DNA from: a virus
Lineage: Duplodnaviria; Heunggongvirae; Uroviricota; Caudoviricetes
Reading direction: 5' to 3' (one strand)
Length of the DNA stretch: 11,010 bases
IMG/VR virus record: IMGVR_UViG_2681813236_000014
Coordinates: 1-11,010 of that record
Shown: positions 723 through 10,726 of the stretch, piece after piece
Position numbering within the stretch: the stretch's first letter is position 1
How the letters are laid out: the number at the start of each line of letters is the position of its first letter
Position numbers and translations under genes: made by a program
Notes under the pieces: model-generated
Told to the model about the DNA's origin: nothing
Database searches by the model: none
The model's input: the letters and a program-made list of their open reading frames with translations, nothing else

Positions 723-1943
723 GTGGGAAAAGCACTAAACAAACTGAGCGATTCGACGTTAAAAAAATTGGCGGCTGTCCAGGCAGAAAAAGAGCGTTTT
801 TACTCCGACGGGGGCGGGCTGGAGATTAAACACTCAAAGGGCGGCAAATTAACCTGGTATTTCCGGTACCGAACGGGAGGCCGTGAGGTTGCCGCAGAGC
901 GGTTAAAGCTGGGGGCTTACCCTGAATTGTCGCTGAAAGCCGCAAGGGAAAAACGCACACTGTGCCGGGCATGGCTGGCTGAGGGTAAAAACCCCCGTTA
1001 TGAGTTGTGCGCCACAGTACAGGAAGCACTAAAACCCGTTACGGTGAAGGAAGCGATTAACTACTGGCTGGAGGAATACGCGAAGGATAACCGCAAAGAT
1101 TACATAAAGCTGGTGCAGCGTATGGATAAGCACATCATTTGCCATATTGGGGCAATTCCCCTTGATAAGTGTGATACAAGGCAGTGGATCGCATGTTTTG
1201 ACCGCGTACGAAAAAAAGCACCAGTAGCAGCGGGCCATGTCATGCAGACATGCAAACAGGCGCTAAAGTTTTGCCGCAGGCGGCGCTACGCGTTTAGCAA
1301 CGCCCTGGACGATTTGATCGTTACTGATGTGGGTAAGAGAGCAGAAATCCGCGAGAGAGTGCACAGCAACAGCGAACTAAAAGAAATTCTACGCGCTATT
1401 GATGGTGATGTGTTCGCTCCCTATTACAGTGCGTTAATGCGCTTGTTAATTGTGTTCGGGTGCAGAACGGCAGAGATCAGACTTTCAGAGATCAAAGAAT
1501 GGGACCTGAAAGAAATGTTGTGGACAGTGCCAAAAGAGCACAGCAAAACGAAGGTAACAATATTCCGACCTATTCCTGATGGTATTTTGCCGTTCATTCA
1601 GAAGCTGGTGGAGCAAAACGCACACACTGGGTTATTACTCGGCGAACTGAAAAAAGATACCACGGTGGCGCAATATGGACGAAATGCGCATAAGCGGCTT
1701 AAGCAGGAACACTGGACGCTGCATGATTTCCGACACACGTTTACAACTATGCTGAATGATTTAGGTGTCGATCCGCATATCGTGGAGCACATCACAGCGC
1801 ATCAGATGCCAGGTCAGCAAAAAACCTATAACCATTCACGCTATTTGCAGGCGAAACGGGACGCACTGAATCTATGGGTTGAGCGTCTTGATATGATTGC
1901 AGGATATAATGAAAATATTGTGATATTGAGAGGGATACAATGA
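723..1943 (+). CDS. int: Tyrosine recombinase, P4-type integrase (406 aa, GTG start)
   Basis: N-terminal arm-binding pattern (DGGGLEIKHSKGGKLTWYFRYR); catalytic-region motifs GCRTAEI, HDFRHT and a C-terminal Tyr (KTYNHS); RBS AAGAGGA 7 nt upstream; adjacent to the insertion junction. Confidence 0.9.
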   Translation: MGKALNKLSDSTLKKLAAVQAEKERFYSDGGGLEIKHSKGGKLTWYFRYRTGGREVAAERLKLGAYPELSLKAAREKRTLCRAWLAEGKNPRYELCATVQEALKPVTVKEAINYWLEEYAKDNRKDYIKLVQRMDKHIICHIGAIPLDKCDTRQWIACFDRVRKKAPVAAGHVMQTCKQALKFCRRRRYAFSNALDDLIVTDVGKRAEIRERVHSNSELKEILRAIDGDVFAPYYSALMRLLIVFGCRTAEIRLSEIKEWDLKEMLWTVPKEHSKTKVTIFRPIPDGILPFIQKLVEQNAHTGLLLGELKKDTTVAQYGRNAHKRLKQEHWTLHDFRHTFTTMLNDLGVDPHIVEHITAHQMPGQQKTYNHSRYLQAKRDALNLWVERLDMIAGYNENIVILRGIQ

Positions 1944-2794
1944 CGAAAAAAGTAAATAGTAAAAAAGATTTACCAAAGTCATTTGATTTAGGCAAATATG
2001 ATTGCCTAGAAAACTTGTCGGATAAAGATCTATTTCGCCAATTATATTGGCGACAAGATGATTTAACAATGAAACATTCTGAGATGCCTGAATATGGATT
2101 TATGTTTGGTGCTGAATACCCGTTGCATAATAATTACGGGGATCCATTTGGAGAGCTGAAAGAAGACGATTGGTTTTGTGATAAACAAAAAGAATATGAC
2201 CATAAAGTGCAACCGAAGTTAATTGAGCTAAGTTATGATGATGGAATTAAACCTGTAACAAGATTTGATATATCAATGATTAATAAACTGACTGCGGAAA
2301 GAGGATATTGGAAGGATAAACCAATCATCATAGATAATGAGATGGTTGGAAGTTTAATATCAGAAGATAATGGGATGTTTTGGGCTGTGATGCGTGAACC
2401 AGTGAATCTCCTTTCTGATACATTAGATAATATGCTTGTTTCTGTTGACTTACTACATAACAGAGATGATGAGTTGATTGAAGCGTTTACAAAACTATTA
2501 CCAAAATGGCGTAGTGAACTTTCAATTGTTGAGCCAGACAAACCAATTGCAGGAAGTTGGGAGAGCATACGACGTAAAATTATTGATTATAAGATAATCC
2601 CATTAATTGACTTATTATCTTGGGAGTTGTCTACAGATAGAAAAATTTCATTAGGGGTGCTTGCCGTATCTTTGTATCCTGATGGTGAAAAGGACACCTT
2701 TGCTATTGCTCAGACTGTAAAACCCTTCTTAGAAAAAATAATGCGCAGCGATTCTTTAGAAAAAATAAGAAAAATTTTATCTAATGAAAATTAA
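1940..2794 (+). CDS. Hypothetical protein, AT-rich cargo gene (284 aa), function unknown
   Basis: Long ORF with start overlapping the int stop (ATGA), RBS AGAGGGA. Markedly lower GC than flanking int and alpA. No motif I can assign. Confidence 0.7.
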   Translation: MTKKVNSKKDLPKSFDLGKYDCLENLSDKDLFRQLYWRQDDLTMKHSEMPEYGFMFGAEYPLHNNYGDPFGELKEDDWFCDKQKEYDHKVQPKLIELSYDDGIKPVTRFDISMINKLTAERGYWKDKPIIIDNEMVGSLISEDNGMFWAVMREPVNLLSDTLDNMLVSVDLLHNRDDELIEAFTKLLPKWRSELSIVEPDKPIAGSWESIRRKIIDYKIIPLIDLLSWELSTDRKISLGVLAVSLYPDGEKDTFAIAQTVKPFLEKIMRSDSLEKIRKILSNEN

Positions 2795-2897: not shown

Positions 2898-3122
2898 ATG
2901 AATCAAAATACACAATTTCAATCACTAACAGATCGCGTAATTCGTGAGGATGAATGTCGTAAGTTAACAGGCGTCAGCCGTACTACACGCTACGAACTGG
3001 AGAAGAAAGGGGGCTTTCCGTCTCGCCGTAATCTTGGGGGGCGTTCTGTAGGCTGGTTGCTTTCCGAAGTTATGGACTGGGTGCAAAGCCGTGACCGCGT
3101 TAATTCAGGTAAGGCAGCGTAA
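2898..3122 (+). CDS. alpA: AlpA-family transcriptional regulator / excisionase-like (74 aa)
   Basis: HTH-containing small protein (LTGVSRTTRYELEKKGGFPSRRNLGGRSVGWLLSEVMDWVQS) typical of AlpA family; RBS GAGGG upstream; standard position after int in P4-like and PICI elements. Confidence 0.8.
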   Translation: MNQNTQFQSLTDRVIREDECRKLTGVSRTTRYELEKKGGFPSRRNLGGRSVGWLLSEVMDWVQSRDRVNSGKAA

Positions 3123-3473: not shown

Positions 3474-3779
3474 CTATTCCTGCTCTTTGACCTTGCGTCG
3501 CTGGAGTTCTTCACGCGCGACGGTGACGAGTTGCCCGATCTCCTCGGCGGCTTTGACTCCGATTTTTTCCACCTGCGCTAGGGCATCGAGCGAAGAAACC
3601 AGGAGGTTTTCTCCGCTTCCTTCTGCCTGGCGGCGGGCGATTTCACCGCGCATGGCGGTTACTATGAATCCGGCGTTGCTTTCACCGTCCAGTTTTACGG
3701 ATTCCATGCCTTCAATAACATCATGCGGGATCCGAGCTGTCAGTGATTGTGATTTTGCGTTTTTTGAACCTGTAGCCAT
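3474..3779 (-). CDS. Putative ribbon-helix-helix (CopG/Arc-like) DNA-binding regulator, 101 aa; candidate island repressor
   Basis: Strong RBS GAGAGGA 6 nt before the ATG at 3779 (the ORF-track start at 3794 is a TTG without RBS). N-terminus SLTARIPHDVIEGMESV fits a beta-strand/helix RHH pattern. Divergent from the pri operon across an operator-rich region. Confidence 0.6.
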   Translation of the reverse strand: MATGSKNAKSQSLTARIPHDVIEGMESVKLDGESNAGFIVTAMRGEIARRQAEGSGENLLVSSLDALAQVEKIGVKAAEEIGQLVTVAREELQRRKVKEQE

Positions 3780-3800
3780 CTGTAATCCTCTCAATGAAAG

Positions 3801-4498: not shown

Positions 4499-4798
4499 AT
4501 GAGAACGTATTTATCTGGCTTGACTGCCAGCGGTTATGCACACCCCCAAATTATCCCCGGCGCTATTTATCTGGATAAGAACGGTAACAGAGTAACGGTA
4601 AAAGAACTGATGTTTGACCGTGTGTATTTTATCCGTGATGGCTATTCATTTCTTAGTTCGCTGAACGTGGAGATCTTTATTAGCAGATTCAGGCGGGAAA
4701 TCCCGCTTTCCAGAAATAACCATGTGTCATGTATGGATGTTGATAAAAAACTACAGGAACTAAAAAACATGATTGCCGCGTGGAGAGAGCAGAAATGA
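4499..4798 (+). CDS. Hypothetical protein (99 aa)
   Basis: Stop overlaps the primase ATG at 4795 (ATGA), suggesting translational coupling; no recognisable motif. Confidence 0.55.
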   Translation: MRTYLSGLTASGYAHPQIIPGAIYLDKNGNRVTVKELMFDRVYFIRDGYSFLSSLNVEIFISRFRREIPLSRNNHVSCMDVDKKLQELKNMIAAWREQK

Positions 4799-6612
4799 AA
4801 AAAGCGCCAAATTTAAAACACCAGCCGCGTGACAAAATGACGGAAGTCATCATTTTTGCGGGTAGTGATGCGTGGGCACATGCGAAACAGTGGCAGGAAC
4901 AGGACGGGCGACTGGCTGGCGATAACGTGCCACCTGTCTGGCTTGGAGAGCAACAACTTGCCGAACTGGACAACCTGCAAATCGTACCGGACGGACGCTA
5001 TCGCGTGCGTCTCTATCAGGCGGGGTTATTGCGGCCGGGGCTTGTTAATACCATCGGGCAGAAACTGGCAGTGGCAGGTGTCAGGGATGCTGATTATTAC
5101 CCTGAAGGAATGCACAGCCAGAAACGGGAGAACTGGCGCGAATATCTGGAACGTGAACGGGCAGAGCAGGCGGAAAAGAAAAAGGTAGTTGAACTGCCTG
5201 TAAAGAAAAAAGAGCGGGTAAAAGACGATAACGCGTCATCACTGGCGCTTAACCAGATGGGAGCAAGTCAACGCGGCGAAGTTCTCCTGGCACATTATGG
5301 CGGTGAACTGGCGATTCATGCTGACTCTGACACTGTTCACCATTACAACGGCGTTGTATGGGAGCCAGTACAGGATAAAGAATTACAGCGAGCTATGGCA
5401 CAGATTTTCATTGATGCGGAGATCAGCTATTCGCAGAACGCCATTAAATCGGCGGTCGATACCATGAAGTTAAGTTTGCCTGTAATGGGGAATACAGCCC
5501 GTAACCTGATTGGATTCAGTAACGGGGTATTTGATACCAGAACAGGTAATTTTCGGGAGCATAACAAAAACGACTGGTTGTTAATTGCCAGTGAATTACC
5601 TTTCAGCCCACCAGCAGAGGGGGAAACGCTGGCAACACATGCGCCGAATTTCTGGAAGTGGTTACGCCGTTCGGTGGCTGAGAATGACCGCAAGGCGGAT
5701 CGCGTACTGGCTGCATTATTCATGGTGCTGGCGAACCGGTACGACTGGCAGTTATTCATTGAGGTAACAGGTCCAGGGGGAAGTGGTAAAAGCGTGATGG
5801 CGGAGATTTGCACCATGCTGGCGGGTAAGGCCAACACAGTATCGGCAAGCATGAAGGCGCTGGAAGATGCAAGGGAACGCGCGTTAGTGGTTGGCTTTTC
5901 GCTGATTATCATGCCGGATATGACCCGCTACGCTGGTGATGGGGCAGGGATTAAGGCTATTACAGGCGGTGACAAGGTGGCAATTGACCCGAAACACAAA
6001 GCCCCCTACTCAACGCGTATTCCGGCAGTAGTGCTGGCGGTTAACAATAACGCCATGTCATTCAGTGACCGCAGCGGGGGGATCTCACGTCGTCGGGTGA
6101 TATTCAATTTTTCGGAAGTTGTACCGGAGAACGAACGTGATCCAATGCTGGCGGAAAAAATAGAAGGTGAGCTGGCGGTAGTGATTCGCCATCTGCTTAC
6201 ACGGTTTGCTGACCAGGACGAAGCCAGACGCCTGTTATATGAGCAGCAGAAATCTGAAGAAGCACTGGCGATAAAGCGAGAGGGGGATTCGCTGGTGGAC
6301 TTCTGCGGCTATCTCATGGCGTCGGTAATGTGTGATGGCCTGTTAGTGGGTAATGCTGAAATTGTGCCATTCAGCCCACGCAGGTATCTCTATCATGCCT
6401 ATCTGGCTTATATGAGGGCACATGGGTTTGGTAAACCTGTAACACTGACGCGCTTCGGTAAAGATATGCCGGGGGCAATGGCGGAATATGGCAGGGAGTA
6501 TATGAAACGGAAAACGAAGCACGGTTTGCGTTCAAACGTGACACTGACGGAGGAATCAGAAGACTGGATGCCATCATGTGTATCGGTCACTAATGACGAT
6601 AGCAAAAATTAA
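4795..6612 (+). CDS. P4-family primase/helicase (replication initiator, pri-rep), ~605 aa
   Basis: Walker A GPGGSGKS (5769-5792) in the C-terminal helicase-like domain; large N-terminal domain; iteron origin immediately downstream. Start chosen at the ATG at 4795 (RBS GGAGAG, ATGA overlap) rather than the GTG at 4780. Confidence 0.88.
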   Translation: MKKAPNLKHQPRDKMTEVIIFAGSDAWAHAKQWQEQDGRLAGDNVPPVWLGEQQLAELDNLQIVPDGRYRVRLYQAGLLRPGLVNTIGQKLAVAGVRDADYYPEGMHSQKRENWREYLERERAEQAEKKKVVELPVKKKERVKDDNASSLALNQMGASQRGEVLLAHYGGELAIHADSDTVHHYNGVVWEPVQDKELQRAMAQIFIDAEISYSQNAIKSAVDTMKLSLPVMGNTARNLIGFSNGVFDTRTGNFREHNKNDWLLIASELPFSPPAEGETLATHAPNFWKWLRRSVAENDRKADRVLAALFMVLANRYDWQLFIEVTGPGGSGKSVMAEICTMLAGKANTVSASMKALEDARERALVVGFSLIIMPDMTRYAGDGAGIKAITGGDKVAIDPKHKAPYSTRIPAVVLAVNNNAMSFSDRSGGISRRRVIFNFSEVVPENERDPMLAEKIEGELAVVIRHLLTRFADQDEARRLLYEQQKSEEALAIKREGDSLVDFCGYLMASVMCDGLLVGNAEIVPFSPRRYLYHAYLAYMRAHGFGKPVTLTRFGKDMPGAMAEYGREYMKRKTKHGLRSNVTLTEESEDWMPSCVSVTNDDSKN

Positions 6613-6620
6613 ACTTATGG

Positions 6621-6850
6621 AATAACTGTTCACCACTGTTCACCCCGTCATAAATGTCTTTTATATCATTATATTATAGGGTGAACAGTTATTTATGAAC
6701 TGTTCACCAAACTATTCACTGTTCACCTTTTTGATTGTTTATTGAGCTGCAAGGGTGAACAGTGGTGAACAGTTGGTGAATAGTTTTTGTGAAACTGTTC
6801 ACCCCTTAACATTATGAATTGAAAGAGAAAATAGCAAAAGGTGAACACGT
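6621..6850. repeat. Iteron cluster / putative origin of replication
   Basis: About 10 copies of the 10-mer ACTGTTCACC in both orientations: direct at 6625, 6635, 6699, 6718, 6794; inverted GGTGAACAGT at 6680, 6754, 6764, plus degenerate copies at 6775 and 6840. An AT-rich stretch lies between them (6645-6679). Confidence 0.75.
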
Positions 6851-6955
6851 GAAGGGTTAAAATACAAAAATTTTATTACAGCATGGAATATTAAGTTTTA
6901 GCCGACAGGTAGTTAGCCATAAGAGGATATTTGTCGCTTAGTATTACGTACATAA

Positions 6956-6980
6956 CAGCAAACACTTTTCTGGTTTGCTG
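6956..6980 (-). terminator. Possible terminator hairpin downstream of the HEPN-like gene
   Basis: 8-bp stem CAGCAAAC/GTTTGCTG with 9-nt loop; flanking U-run on the minus strand is weak. Confidence 0.3.
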
Positions 6981-7003
6981 GATTAATAGATAAGCGCTAT
7001 AAG

Positions 7004-7717
7004 TTAGTTAGTTTTGAAAAATTTATTGAATAACTCTAAGCTTTCAGGATGTATATATTGAGTAGGGTAACTGATACGTTGTGAGCGTCCAATTTTTATT
7101 GTGTTTTTTTTCGTCTTCCCAAAAAATAGATTCTTCCATGTTAAAATGTTTCCGTGATTATATTTATTGTCTTTTAATCGCTTTTCCAAATAACCATCTG
7201 TGATTTTATATTTATGTGGCGGTACATTCCTTGAGTGCTCAATTTTCCGTAATTCTACTTCTAGCATATCTATTAGCTCACCTTTAGGGGTTTTGAGTTG
7301 ATAATTTAGTAAGCGGCAGTATCTGCGTAATTCCCATACAGTTCTATCTAATGTAATAATTTCAAACCCATTAGTATACATGACTTTTTGGAAGTATCTA
7401 TTTGGTCCTTGGTCATTTAGATACTCTATGAAATATATGCTTTTATCACTCAGATCTAGTTTAATATATGGAATATCATTAATTTTTTTAATTCCTGCAA
7501 CAAGATCATGTCCAATATTTTTAACAGGGATTCTATTAAAAATAAGAATGCATTTTATATATTTTTCAATTGCTTGTTGAGACATCCATAAAAATTGGAA
7601 AGGAAGATTGTTTTTAAAGCAAATACGAGCAGTTAGATAATCTTGATCAGCCATGTCTCTGAAAGATCTTTTAGCCGCATTATTCAGAAAAATTTTTTGA
7701 GTATCAGTAAGTTCCAT
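7004..7717 (-). CDS. AT-rich cargo protein with HEPN-like N-terminal domain (237 aa); candidate RNase-type defense/abortive-infection effector
   Basis: RBS AGGAAG; N-terminal helices with HEPN-like pattern (AAKRSFRDMADQDYLTARI...QQAIEKYIKCIL...NIGHDLVAGIKKI); roughly 30% GC by eye versus ~50% in flanks; opposite strand to surrounding island genes. Confidence 0.7.
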   Translation of the reverse strand: MELTDTQKIFLNNAAKRSFRDMADQDYLTARICFKNNLPFQFLWMSQQAIEKYIKCILIFNRIPVKNIGHDLVAGIKKINDIPYIKLDLSDKSIYFIEYLNDQGPNRYFQKVMYTNGFEIITLDRTVWELRRYCRLLNYQLKTPKGELIDMLEVELRKIEHSRNVPPHKYKITDGYLEKRLKDNKYNHGNILTWKNLFFGKTKKNTIKIGRSQRISYPTQYIHPESLELFNKFFKTN

Positions 7718-7863
7718 TCTCTTCCTGTGTCAGTGGTTGCAAGTGATTAGAAGATACAAGACATGATAAAGATTATAAATCGATTTTTATGGTAAAAATA
7801 TGTTTATTTACCACTTTTGTAGATCGATACTATGTATAGTTTAGTCAGTCAGAGGAAGTTGTT

Positions 7864-8073
7864 GTGAGTTGTATTAATGACCTGAACACAGGCGATATCA
7901 GAGGCGGTTCCGTTCATCTGGATGCGCAGACCGTTATGCGCCTTAAGCAGTACAGGATCGACCATATAAATCATCATCCTGACCAACCATTACCAGGTGT
8001 GGCGCAGATTGTCAGGCATGCCGTAAACGCCTGGCTTAATCAGAGTGGTTTTGCATCGGAGAGTGAGCAATGA
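7864..8073 (+). CDS. Hypothetical small protein (69 aa, GTG start) preceding the capsid gene
   Basis: RBS AGAGGAAG 5 nt before the GTG; stop overlaps the next ATG (ATGA); function not assignable. Confidence 0.5.
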   Translation: MSCINDLNTGDIRGGSVHLDAQTVMRLKQYRIDHINHHPDQPLPGVAQIVRHAVNAWLNQSGFASESEQ

Positions 8074-9983
8074 ATCACTGGTACACCATTAAGGCGGCGG
8101 ATGTTCGCGGAGCGGCGGATATATCTATCTATGAGGAGATTGGCGGCTTCGGTGTTACTGCAAAGCAGTTCGCGGAAGACCTGAAAGCCCTTGGCGATGT
8201 TTCACATATCAATCTGAGGATCCATTCACCAGGTGGTGATGTGTTTGAAGGCATCGCCATCTATAACCTGCTACGGAATCATCCGGCAGACATTACGGTT
8301 TATATCGATGGTGTTGCGGCTTCAATGGCTTCGGTTGTCGCAATGGCTGGCGATCGTGTTGTTATGCCGGAGAACGCCATGATGATGATCCATAAGCCGT
8401 GGGGTATCTCTGGCGGAAATGCTGGCGATATGCGTGATTATGCTGATTTGCTGGATAAGGTGGAAACCGTGTTAATCCCTGCTTATGCCAGAAAAACGGG
8501 CAAATCAGCACAGGAAATTACCGCCATGCTGGAGGATGAAACCTGGATGGATGGGAAAGAATGCCTTAAGCACGGTTTTGCTGATGAATTGTTGCCATCC
8601 GTCAGAGCAATGGCGCGAATTGAATCGAAACGCACAGGAGATTTTTTACATATGCCGGAAACCATTAAAGGAATGATTACACCGCCACAGGGAGCGGCAA
8701 ATATTGCTGGTAATGAACAGAAGCGCATCAATGGAATAAGTGAAGTGTTTAGCTTGTTCGGCAGTCGTTACGACGGGATCAAAATGGCGTGTCTGGAAGA
8801 TGCATCATGTACACCGGAAATGGCCCGTGAAAAGCTGTTGAACGAGCTGGGGCGCGAGTCCACGCCATCCAATAAAAATACCTCGCCTCATATCTATGCC
8901 GGAAACGGAAACATAACAGGTGATGCAATTCGTCAGGGGCTTTATTCCCGTCTTGGGTATGAACGCCCTGAACGAGGCAACCCTTACGCGATGATGAGCC
9001 TTTTTGAAATGGCCCAGGCATCACTGGTTGATCGTGGTATCACTGTGAGCGGTTTTATTAATCGCTCGCAGGTTGTTAATGCGGCTTTTACACACAGCAG
9101 CAGCGATTTTTCTCATATTCTGGCTGGTGGCGCTGAGAAATCAGTACTGAAAGGCTGGCAGGACAGCGGCGAAACGTTCCAGAAATGGACGCGTACCGGT
9201 TCGCTTTCAAACTTTCATGAAGCAAAGCGCGTTGGTCTGAATGGTTTTTCAAAGCTGGATAAAGTACCGGAAGGCGCGGAATATAAATACATCACCACTA
9301 GCGATAAAGGTGTACCTATTGCGCTGGCCACGTACGGGAATATTTTTTCCGTTACCCGTCAGGCCATTATCAACGATGACCTGACCCAGTTAACTACAAT
9401 CCCCATGGCGATGGGACGCGCAGCTGCCAGAACAGTTGGCAATCTGGTTTATCTCCTGTTAACCAGCAACGGCAAGTTTACGGATGGTAAAGCGTTATTC
9501 CATGCCGATCATAAAAATCTTATTGCGAAGGATATGGACATGGAGGGGCTTAACGAAGCCCGTAAGCTGATGCGCCTCCAGGAAGACGCTAACGGCGATT
9601 CGCTGAATATTACCCCCGCATTTGTCCTGGTCCCCGCCGCGCTGGAGTCTGCCGCACATCGCGCCATTCTGTCATCGTCATCACTCTTTCCGGTTGATGG
9701 CGTGGGCACTATCAATCAGAACCCCGGCATCATTAACGTGGTGAAAGATATGGCGGAGGTAATCGTTGAGCCACGTCTTGATAAAGCCAATAACAAGGAG
9801 TGGTATGTGGCAGCGGCGAAGGGTATGGACACGATAGAGGTCGCTTATCTTGATGGTATTGATACGCCATATCTTGAGGAGCAGGAGGGCTTTACTGTTG
9901 ATGGCGTCGCCTGGAAGGTGCGCATAGATGCAGGTGTCGCGGCCCTCGACTATCGCGGATTACTGAAATCGAGTGGAGCATGA
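8070..9983 (+). CDS. Prohead protease (ClpP/S14-like) fused to major capsid protein (637 aa)
   Basis: N-terminus has ClpP-like motifs (IHSPGGDV, GVAASMASVVAMAGD, MMIHKPWG). C-terminal ~400 aa resemble phage major head proteins (DGKALFHADHKN recalls Mu gpT-like DGKPFFAADHP). Strong RBS; intrinsic terminator immediately downstream. Confidence 0.85.
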   Translation: MNHWYTIKAADVRGAADISIYEEIGGFGVTAKQFAEDLKALGDVSHINLRIHSPGGDVFEGIAIYNLLRNHPADITVYIDGVAASMASVVAMAGDRVVMPENAMMMIHKPWGISGGNAGDMRDYADLLDKVETVLIPAYARKTGKSAQEITAMLEDETWMDGKECLKHGFADELLPSVRAMARIESKRTGDFLHMPETIKGMITPPQGAANIAGNEQKRINGISEVFSLFGSRYDGIKMACLEDASCTPEMAREKLLNELGRESTPSNKNTSPHIYAGNGNITGDAIRQGLYSRLGYERPERGNPYAMMSLFEMAQASLVDRGITVSGFINRSQVVNAAFTHSSSDFSHILAGGAEKSVLKGWQDSGETFQKWTRTGSLSNFHEAKRVGLNGFSKLDKVPEGAEYKYITTSDKGVPIALATYGNIFSVTRQAIINDDLTQLTTIPMAMGRAAARTVGNLVYLLLTSNGKFTDGKALFHADHKNLIAKDMDMEGLNEARKLMRLQEDANGDSLNITPAFVLVPAALESAAHRAILSSSSLFPVDGVGTINQNPGIINVVKDMAEVIVEPRLDKANNKEWYVAAAKGMDTIEVAYLDGIDTPYLEEQEGFTVDGVAWKVRIDAGVAALDYRGLLKSSGA

Positions 9984-10061: not shown

Positions 10062-10240
10062 AAAAAGGCTAGTTTTTGCATTTTCATTCGTCATCATCAT
10101 CTTCATATTGTATTGAATTTTAAGCATTTTTATTTTTGGTATGTTAATTTTACTTGTTTTATGCTCAACATATAGCGCATTTTTTGACCTCTTCTGAAAG
10201 TTGTTCGCAAGATGCATGTTTAAAACATTCTGGAGCGGGT

Positions 10241-10726
10241 ATGGATCGAGAACTGAAAAATCTGATGCTGAACATTAATCAACTGGCGGCGATAGCGGGA
10301 ATATGTCGTCAGACTGCGGCGGCAAGGCTGAAAAACATCCAGCCAGCCGGAGGGCATGACAAGCTGAAACTCTATCGGGTGACTGACATTCTGACCTGTT
10401 TTCTTGATCTTCCCGTTCCGGCATCACTGGAAGAAATGGAGCCACATGACCGTAAGGCCTGGTATCAGTCCGAACGTGAACGCCTCAAGTTCGAACAGGA
10501 AACGGCGCAACTCATACCCGCCGATGATGTGCGAAAAGAGATGGCTATATGGGGGGAAATCGTAAGCGAGGAACTGGCAAAACTCCCCAATATTCTGGCA
10601 CGTGATGCCGGGCTTAAACCGATGGCAGTAAACAGAGTGCAGTCAATTATTGACGATTTGTGTAATCAGATTATCAGCCGGATGGTAAAAAATGACGTAG
10701 TGAATGAGGTCGCAAAACAGGCATGA
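10241..10726 (+). CDS. Small terminase subunit, Nu1-like (161 aa)
   Basis: RBS GGAG 7 nt before the ATG at 10241 (the ORF-track start at 10154 lies inside the cos region and lacks an RBS). N-terminal HTH (LNINQLAAIAGICRQTAAARLKN) and overall layout resemble lambda Nu1; immediately downstream of cos. Confidence 0.72.
   Translation: MDRELKNLMLNINQLAAIAGICRQTAAARLKNIQPAGGHDKLKLYRVTDILTCFLDLPVPASLEEMEPHDRKAWYQSERERLKFEQETAQLIPADDVRKEMAIWGEIVSEELAKLPNILARDAGLKPMAVNRVQSIIDDLCNQIISRMVKNDVVNEVAKQA

Follow-up and report, generated by a model that had tools for sequence, protein, structure and literature searches.

What is a lone AT-rich gene, oriented against its neighbors, doing between the replication origin and the capsid genes of a satellite? 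The window (the whole 11,010-nt stretch that was analyzed) holds a ca. 10-kb Gram-negative PICI inserted downstream of rcnR. The order int, alpA, pri, ori and late/packaging genes and the unidirectional layout are those described for these elements, in which ori lies downstream of pri (PMC10111431). The features of the island are the following:

723-1943: integrase, gene 1 of the island (Pfam)
1940-2794, plus strand: DUF6387 gene (PF19924, 3e-31), directly 3' of the integrase gene, AT-rich (GC 0.335, GC3 0.26)
2898-3122: AlpA (Pfam)
3474-3794, minus strand: YlcI/YnfO-like ORF, one other minus-strand ORF of the island
4499-4798: DUF4222
4780-6612, plus strand: pri, a D5-type primase-helicase gene that borders the slot upstream (Pfam)
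about 6613-6875: PICI replication origin, with direct and inverted ACTGTTCACC iterons (repeat search)
6876-7774: variable cassette of 899 bp that carries the HEPN gene (breakpoints 6875/6876 and 7774/7775 by comparison with sister islands)
6956-6980, minus strand: weak hairpin 3' of the HEPN stop codon (the segment folds at -10.9 kcal/mol, z -1.0)
7004-7717, minus strand: ORF of the solo HEPN family, 237 aa, ATG start, WP_029397291.1 (ORF call, Pfam, RefSeq)
7721-7726, minus strand: RBS AGGAAG, 3 nt 5' of the HEPN ATG
7772-7777, minus strand: exact TATAAT, a candidate -10 box that lacks a good -35 (read from the sequence)
7864-8073, plus strand: 69-aa ORF, a member of the capsid module; its stop and the start of the capsid gene overlap in ATGA (8070-8073)
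8070-9983, plus strand: ClpP prohead protease/major capsid protein fusion (ClpP-MCP), downstream flank (Pfam)
10154-10726: DUF1441 (Pfam)

Between the primase and HEPN genes, ACTGTTCACC is repeated about ten times, in direct and inverted orientation, in agreement with the published position of the PICI ori (PMC10111431), and the gene thus adjoins the replication origin, as a preliminary description of this DNA had proposed. Part of this palindromic origin (6653-6832) also gave Rfam matches to miRNA precursors far below threshold (MIR821, 45 bits against a gathering value of 249), which are spurious. Close to the integrase, the slot of the DUF6387 gene is filled in sister islands by a TIR-domain gene (L012) or by HicB and putAbiC (L015/L016), and it may be another cargo or defense position. 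The DUF6387 gene of the window itself had no match in PADLOC.

The 237-aa ORF is a real gene. It is the longest open frame of the cassette, at 241 codons, against 66 codons on average and 136 at most in 1,000 shuffles of the same cassette, and it has its own RBS. Its GC content (0.298, i.e., 29.8%; GC3, 0.24) is much lower than that of the flanking primase (0.511; GC3, 0.53) and ClpP-MCP (0.497; GC3, 0.50) genes. The closest pair of alleles, that of the window and one 95% identical to it, gave a dN/dS of 0.14, and the enterobacterial orthologs have exactly 237 codons each, with no decay seen among them; the gene is under purifying selection. The preliminary description had also placed it on the strand opposite to the island genes, which holds for both adjacent genes; the island has one other minus-strand ORF, at 3474-3794. 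The promoter that it was said to own fared worse. A consensus promoter scan found no minus-strand site 5' of the gene, and the only candidate is the TATAAT at 7772-7777, missed by the scan, with a poor -35 and spanning the cassette boundary. Likewise, a terminator scan found none 3' of the gene. The hairpin at 6956-6980 was rejected as a terminator, its stability being no better than that of shuffled sequences.

The product of 7004-7717 is a HEPN protein, a name that its RefSeq entry already carries ("HEPN domain-containing protein"). PF05168 (HEPN) matches aa 20-80 only, with a score (22.2 bits, E of 1.6e-4) barely above the gathering threshold of 22 bits, and the same model matches 29 of 31 relatives at E values up to 0.05 (best, 2e-8). 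An AlphaFold2 model built from 31 sequences (pLDDT 90, pTM 0.88) has the all-alpha, four-helix up-and-down core of the HEPN superfamily. When this model was compared with the PDB by Foldseek, the check that had been suggested at the outset, the four best matches were each a small HEPN protein. In searches by sequence, the protein itself matched nothing in the PDB, and the family profile recovered 1wol at an E value of 0.21 together with chance matches to Pim-1 kinase and nothing else. The protein consists of an HEPN-T (PF05168-type) four-helix core and a family-specific C-terminal extension of ca. 100 aa, with the following parts, all encoded on the minus strand:

7316-7705: HEPN core, ca. aa 5-134 (helices 5-35, 39-60, 72-80, 91-103 and 119-131)
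7553-7567: E51-K52-Y53-I54-K55, E-x3-K motif of helix 2 (E51 and K55 conserved in 100%, K52 in 99% and Y53 in 98%)
7508-7510: H70, candidate alternative catalytic His in the insert between helices 2 and 3 (99% conserved)
7394-7399: R107-Y108, inferred arginine position of the HEPN motif (99% conserved)
7007-7315: C-terminal extension, aa 135-237 (near-invariant G175, E178, L192 and N196)

The limits of the core follow from the fold matches, in which the aligned stretch is at most 132 residues. An HEPN domain had been read earlier in the N-terminal ca. 75 aa; the fold was recognized correctly, but the core extends to ca. aa 134, and the unexplained C-terminal part is therefore ca. 100 aa long rather than the 130 first estimated. 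That part is as unrecognizable as had been said: no structure library, the PDB and BFVD included, gave a match past the HEPN core, and among the viral structures of BFVD no significant match to the protein was found at all. Within the full-length model, aa 135-237 have block-mean pLDDT values of 77 to 95. Modeled by itself, the same segment is too poor (pLDDT 67, pTM 0.34) to serve as a fold query, and for this reason we take it to extend the core and not to form a separate domain. It looks specific to the family and packed against the HEPN core, with G175, E178 and N196 as its conserved polar residues.

Residue conservation was computed over 166 family members with a median identity of 34%. 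Near-invariant positions are R20, D24, D26, Y27, R31, W44, E51, K52, Y53, K55 and H70 in the N-terminal part and R107, Y108, D124, W128, R131, C134, G175, E178, L192 and N196 in the rest, with E51, K52, K55, H70, R107, Y108, D124 and R131 conserved in at least 99% of the sequences. The Ex3[KR] motif described for helix 2 of HEPN proteins by Anantharaman et al. (PMC3710099) appears here as E51/K55 in all 166 members. The Rx4-6H catalytic motif of the superfamily does not. There is no His 5 to 7 residues past R107 (RYFQKVMYTNG), either in the query or in the family consensus, and the canonical motif is therefore absent. AbiV and the AF0298-type HEPN-T proteins have likewise lost the motif His and retained the Arg, and in them a second conserved His, located in the insert between helices 2 and 3 and thus N-terminal to the motif, could build an alternative active site (PMC3710099). 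At the sequence level the present family has the same pair, H70 and R107, each in 99% of members, and H70 falls in the loop 61-71, between helices 39-60 and 72-80. Judging from the alignment, H70, R107 and E51-x3-K55 would fit the alternative H+R site proposed for AbiV/AF0298-type HEPNs. Of the Arg62/His70 pair put forward in the preliminary description, only the histidine survives, as R62 is replaced by T, Q or K among close homologs.

The family is large and scattered. A word-indexed search retrieved only 37 relatives, and an exhaustive profile search gave 1573 representatives (of clusters at 50% identity) at E values of 1e-3 or below, 408 of them at 1e-30 or below. The best 150 of the 1573 are nearly all 220 to 280 aa long and match from end to end. 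Within a set of one genome per species (185,579 genomes), 247 encode a relative, and they belong to Proteobacteria, Nitrospirota, Planctomycetota, Acidobacteriota, Verrucomicrobiota and other phyla. The protein had no match among the 5027 models of PADLOC-DB v2 at E values up to 1, none in NCBIfam or PHROGs, and none by tblastn against 50,697 phage records at E values up to 0.01. Calling it an undescribed family, as was done at first, is thus right with respect to PADLOC, NCBIfam and PHROG models, although RefSeq already names the HEPN domain. The low GC is not peculiar to the window: in 63 of 71 loci the GC of the gene is lower than that of the flanks by 3 points or more (mean over the loci, -9.2), and this family-wide deficit, across many phyla, is a mark of foreign, mobile cargo.

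Distant relatives adjoin gyrA, PQQ enzymes, DNA polymerase III and similar genes. Among 149 immediate neighbors, housekeeping genes are the majority and about 5 to 7 are defense genes (ThsB-TIR twice, PtuA, a defense-type reverse transcriptase, PDC-M01A and PDC-S05), a count too crude for statistics. Plasmid copies in Legionella have an Abi gene and an anti-restriction gene close by, and those in Yersinia ruckeri have DUF4041, P-loop NTPase and recombinase genes.

Could the protein have no nuclease or immune role at all, and act as a non-catalytic HEPN regulator or adaptor that binds nucleotides, RNA or another ligand? The missing Rx4-6H is what this reading would predict, and so are the many relatives among housekeeping genes. 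The closest structures of the core, small HEPN proteins without an assigned activity and the HEPN domain of sacsin, which is described as a nucleotide binder, point the same way. We know of no demonstrated nuclease activity in AF0298-type HEPNs. However, the patchy spread (0.6% of E. coli genomes, 247 of 185,579 species genomes) is unlike that of a housekeeping regulator, the GC, low relative to the host throughout the family, and the carriage on satellites and plasmids also speak against it, and the invariant H/R/E/K set resembles a catalytic site. On balance we find a purely binding role doubtful.

The slot itself is variable. Only 34 of 5426 complete E. coli genomes (0.6%) have the HEPN gene, as three alleles of about 99%, 95% and 68% nucleotide identity, against 739 genomes with the flanking primase/origin or capsid sequences, so that it is not a conserved component of all related islands. 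Nine HEPN-less sister islands were sampled in E. coli. Eight had an SSB gene or its remnant and one had no annotated gene (in L011 the slot is a 429-bp stretch of this kind). The SSB-type replacement is a 1024-bp pair of a hypothetical gene and an SSB gene; in the eight islands the SSB gene or remnant comes after the origin, in most cases behind a hypothetical gene of 81 aa, and ProQ/FinO and PerC come next in two of them and PerC alone in one. The comparison of slots that had been recommended thus does reveal changing contents, but not a parade of defense genes. Two islands without the HEPN gene (L010 and L011) are nearly identical to that of the window in capsid (99.8%) and primase (99.7%).

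Outside E. coli, the same position is occupied in Citrobacter, Klebsiella, Rahnella and one metagenome lineage by HEPN homologs with 47 to 69% identity. In all the satellites examined, the gene lies between a replication gene (D5 primase in some, RepA/AAA_25 helicase in others) and the small ORF plus ClpP-MCP, always on the opposite strand. Its identity (65, 68.5, 67 and 47%) broadly follows that of the capsid (79, 78, 71 and 70.5%), a co-divergence with the capsid module that spans four genera and the metagenome lineage, and ca. 111 nt 5' of the ATG are common to the window and Citrobacter. Kept beside the capsid across genera and missing from near-identical islands, the HEPN gene is therefore a long-term yet dispensable resident next to the ClpP-capsid module. 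The data support its being horizontally acquired accessory cargo of the PICI, placed after pri/ori and antisense to the island genes. A hotspot passenger had been proposed from the start, and the variable slot and foreign GC bear this out, but a gene that has diverged together with the capsid module is less of a random visitor than that term implies.

Several islands illustrate how these elements are assembled. In L001 (NZ_CP031134.1), the primase-ori-HEPN-capsid-DUF1441 core is 99.5 to 100% identical to that of the window at the protein level, the integrase and second gene differ, and the insertion site is tRNA-Ile/mug, not rcnR-thiM. Elsewhere the pri/ori of the window is combined with lambda-like capsid and terS modules (L012 and L107) or, in L013, with a full capsid-forming module. 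Modules are extensively shuffled among islands. L024 (NZ_CP031215.1, 9404-11119) shares the rcnR-thiM site, int and DUF6387 with the window. L026 (NZ_CP024240.1, 2349-14579), and also L025, has a RepA-type PICI with the 68%-nucleotide HEPN allele nested inside the ClpP-MCP gene of a primase-type PICI (site, tRNA-Ile/mug; capsid halves, 2349-2678 and 12978-14579). The HEPN satellites of Klebsiella and Rahnella (L014-L018) are embedded in lambdoid prophages, with the portal gene on one side and the capsid gene on the other, and those of Klebsiella (L014-L017) split the prophage ClpP-MCP gene; such helper-embedded PICIs have already been described (PMC10111431). Finally, three genomes (H1-H3, e.g., NZ_CP117053.1) have a copy of IS903B that separates the end of the primase gene from the HEPN gene, in the equivalent of window positions 6600-7004, with the HEPN ORF intact.

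The lasting adjacency to the ClpP-capsid module could indicate a satellite-specific role instead. The protein might cut or sequester late transcripts of the helper, or regulate the divergent capsid operon, and so favor packaging of the satellite. The position directly 5' of, and divergent from, the small ORF and ClpP-MCP in every satellite examined, whichever the replication gene, speaks for such a factor, and the conserved intergenic stretch and the parallel divergence of the two genes agree with it. Yet the two near-identical islands do without the gene, and L024 has kept an intact HEPN allele (95% nucleotide identity) beside a ClpP-MCP gene that has suffered a frameshift and truncation. Moreover, a 71%-identical copy stands alone in the chromosome of Pectobacterium, between an AraC-type regulator and an aminotransferase, with no mobile-element genes found within 10 kb; its similarity to the window begins exactly at the ATG, and only the ORF is conserved. 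The distant relatives in many phyla are in non-satellite contexts too. We consider a role in the life cycle of the satellite quite unlikely.

A partner protein for the HEPN gene seems to be lacking, as had been noted from the first. No antitoxin gene was found beside it in the window, and no nucleotidyltransferase neighbor in the window, in at least 10 homolog contexts or among the families reported for the 149 neighbors. An all-against-all comparison of 289 neighbors from 77 loci gave no recurrent family, and we conclude that the HEPN family has no conserved protein partner. Two small ORFs on the capsid side were considered and rejected. The 69-aa ORF at 7864-8073 (no Pfam match; 37 to 42% identity across genera) also occurs in islands without HEPN. 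The 42-aa "hypothetical protein" annotated by RefSeq on the minus strand (7849-7977) has an overlapping ORF in a HEPN-less island and is antisense to the plus-strand ORF, which is conserved across genera; of the two, 7864-8073 is more likely to be the real gene, judging from this conservation.

The antitoxin need not be a protein, and the gene might be an addiction toxin that stabilizes the island, controlled by an RNA encoded within or antisense to the ORF. HEPN proteins are common as TA toxins (PMC3710099), AbiV, which is likewise a HEPN protein, depends on an RNA antitoxin (bioRxiv 10.1101/2024.05.05.592566), and an antisense RNA is plausible because the gene is always antisense to island transcription; still, we hold this to be improbable, since the flanking non-coding sequence is not conserved between contexts, the DNA next to the gene has neither tandem repeats nor an Rfam match, no small neighbor recurs among the 77 loci, and every allele keeps its 237 codons without decay.

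Comparison with known systems places the protein near several of them and within none. The minimal PF05168 HEPN-T proteins (AF0298/2hsb, TT1696/1ufb, ST0689/1wol and 4nqf) have 120 to 150 aa and usually come with a minimal NTase, as a pair or as a fusion, whereas the window protein has the additional conserved extension and an NTase neighbor was never found. The type II TA pair HEPN-MNT (HepT/MntA) differs in its adjacent minimal nucleotidyltransferase gene, for which there is no counterpart near the window gene, and in its Rx4H, and it belongs to another HEPN clade. AbiV of Lactococcus is a small HEPN Abi RNase that forms a type III pair with the RNA antitoxin abiV2 (bioRxiv 10.1101/2024.05.05.592566); its likeness lies in the alternative N-terminal His, for which Anantharaman et al. 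grouped it with AF0298 (PMC3710099). Tai (tail assembly inhibition), found in PICIs and lambdoid phages, has the same address, the accessory region beside the PICI pri, and taiEcA of phi80 is divergently oriented inside its operon (PMC11364771). Its homologs are mostly phage-borne, including phi80 orf63, in contrast to the window protein, which had no match in the phage collection, and HEPN is nowhere mentioned in the Tai paper (PMC11364771). The favored functional model, by analogy, is HepS ("HEPN Solo"), the abortive-infection anticodon nuclease of the Salmonella prophage Gifsy-1 (PMC13043305), which resembles our protein in being a single HEPN protein without a partner, encoded in a mobile element at an accessory position. 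The HepS family is defined by the canonical RX4-6H and by homology to STM14_3211 of Gifsy-1; the window protein lacks the former and showed no sign of the latter. Homology to Tai or HepS was rejected because tblastn gave no match in the phage records, an absence from the phage collection on which the judgment about Tai rests; for HepS there is also the missing motif and the lack of a match among PDB sequences.

Our preferred reading is that the gene encodes a solo HEPN anti-phage or abortive-infection effector, carried without a partner as accessory cargo of the PICI, and we see the arguments for and against it as evenly balanced. On its side are the sharp edges of the 899-bp cassette, its low GC, its rarity relative to the flanks and the solo status of the gene, and its location beside pri is one where PICIs are documented to carry immune genes, Tai having been found there (PMC11364771). 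Some circumstantial weight also comes from the defense genes that adjoin a few relatives and from the Abi and anti-restriction genes close to plasmid copies. HepS provides the precedent for defense by a solo HEPN (PMC13043305). Retention of the gene is indicated by the low dN/dS and by the intact HEPN gene next to the decayed capsid gene of L024. Against a defensive function are the absence of Rx4-6H and of any PADLOC match, the few defense neighbors, the fact that the alternative occupant of the slot in E. coli is SSB, a replication accessory, in eight of the nine sampled islands, and the permanence of the gene beside the ClpP-capsid module from E. coli to the metagenome relative with 47% identity.

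If the protein is such an effector, the uninduced lysogen would produce it from the gene's own promoter and keep it inactive, plausibly through the oligomeric state of the protein or the C-terminal extension. Upon infection, RNA would be cleaved or sequestered at a non-canonical site made up of H70, R107 and E51-x3-K55. HepS is a constitutive, auto-inhibited tetramer that is opened by a phage tail-tip protein and then cuts tRNA anticodons (PMC13043305), and by analogy the extension might serve as sensor or inhibitor. One more step is suggested by the invariant antisense orientation: read-through from pri during satellite induction may silence the HEPN gene by antisense. The most far-reaching version, in which the protein is the founding member of a family of solo HEPN immune effectors (ca. 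1,500 clusters at 50% identity) that cut RNA with His70/Arg107, sense phages with the C-terminal part and are switched off by antisense in PICIs, is unlikely to be right as a whole.

The HEPN identity of the protein was already known from RefSeq, the slot had been published, and so had the concept of defense by a solo HEPN. What is new is the delineation of a large, unmodeled HEPN-T family without a partner, in which a conserved, non-canonical site is combined with a C-terminal extension, and the fixed place and orientation of its gene in ClpP-capsid PICIs. Were the protein inactive, it would be one more ordinary annotated "HEPN domain-containing protein." Should it protect against phages, the family would represent a widespread single-gene system that is missing from PADLOC, NCBIfam and PHROGs and would provide the first activity for an AF0298-type HEPN site without Rx4-6H, and the region after pri in Gram-negative PICIs would be extended as a hunting ground for immune genes.
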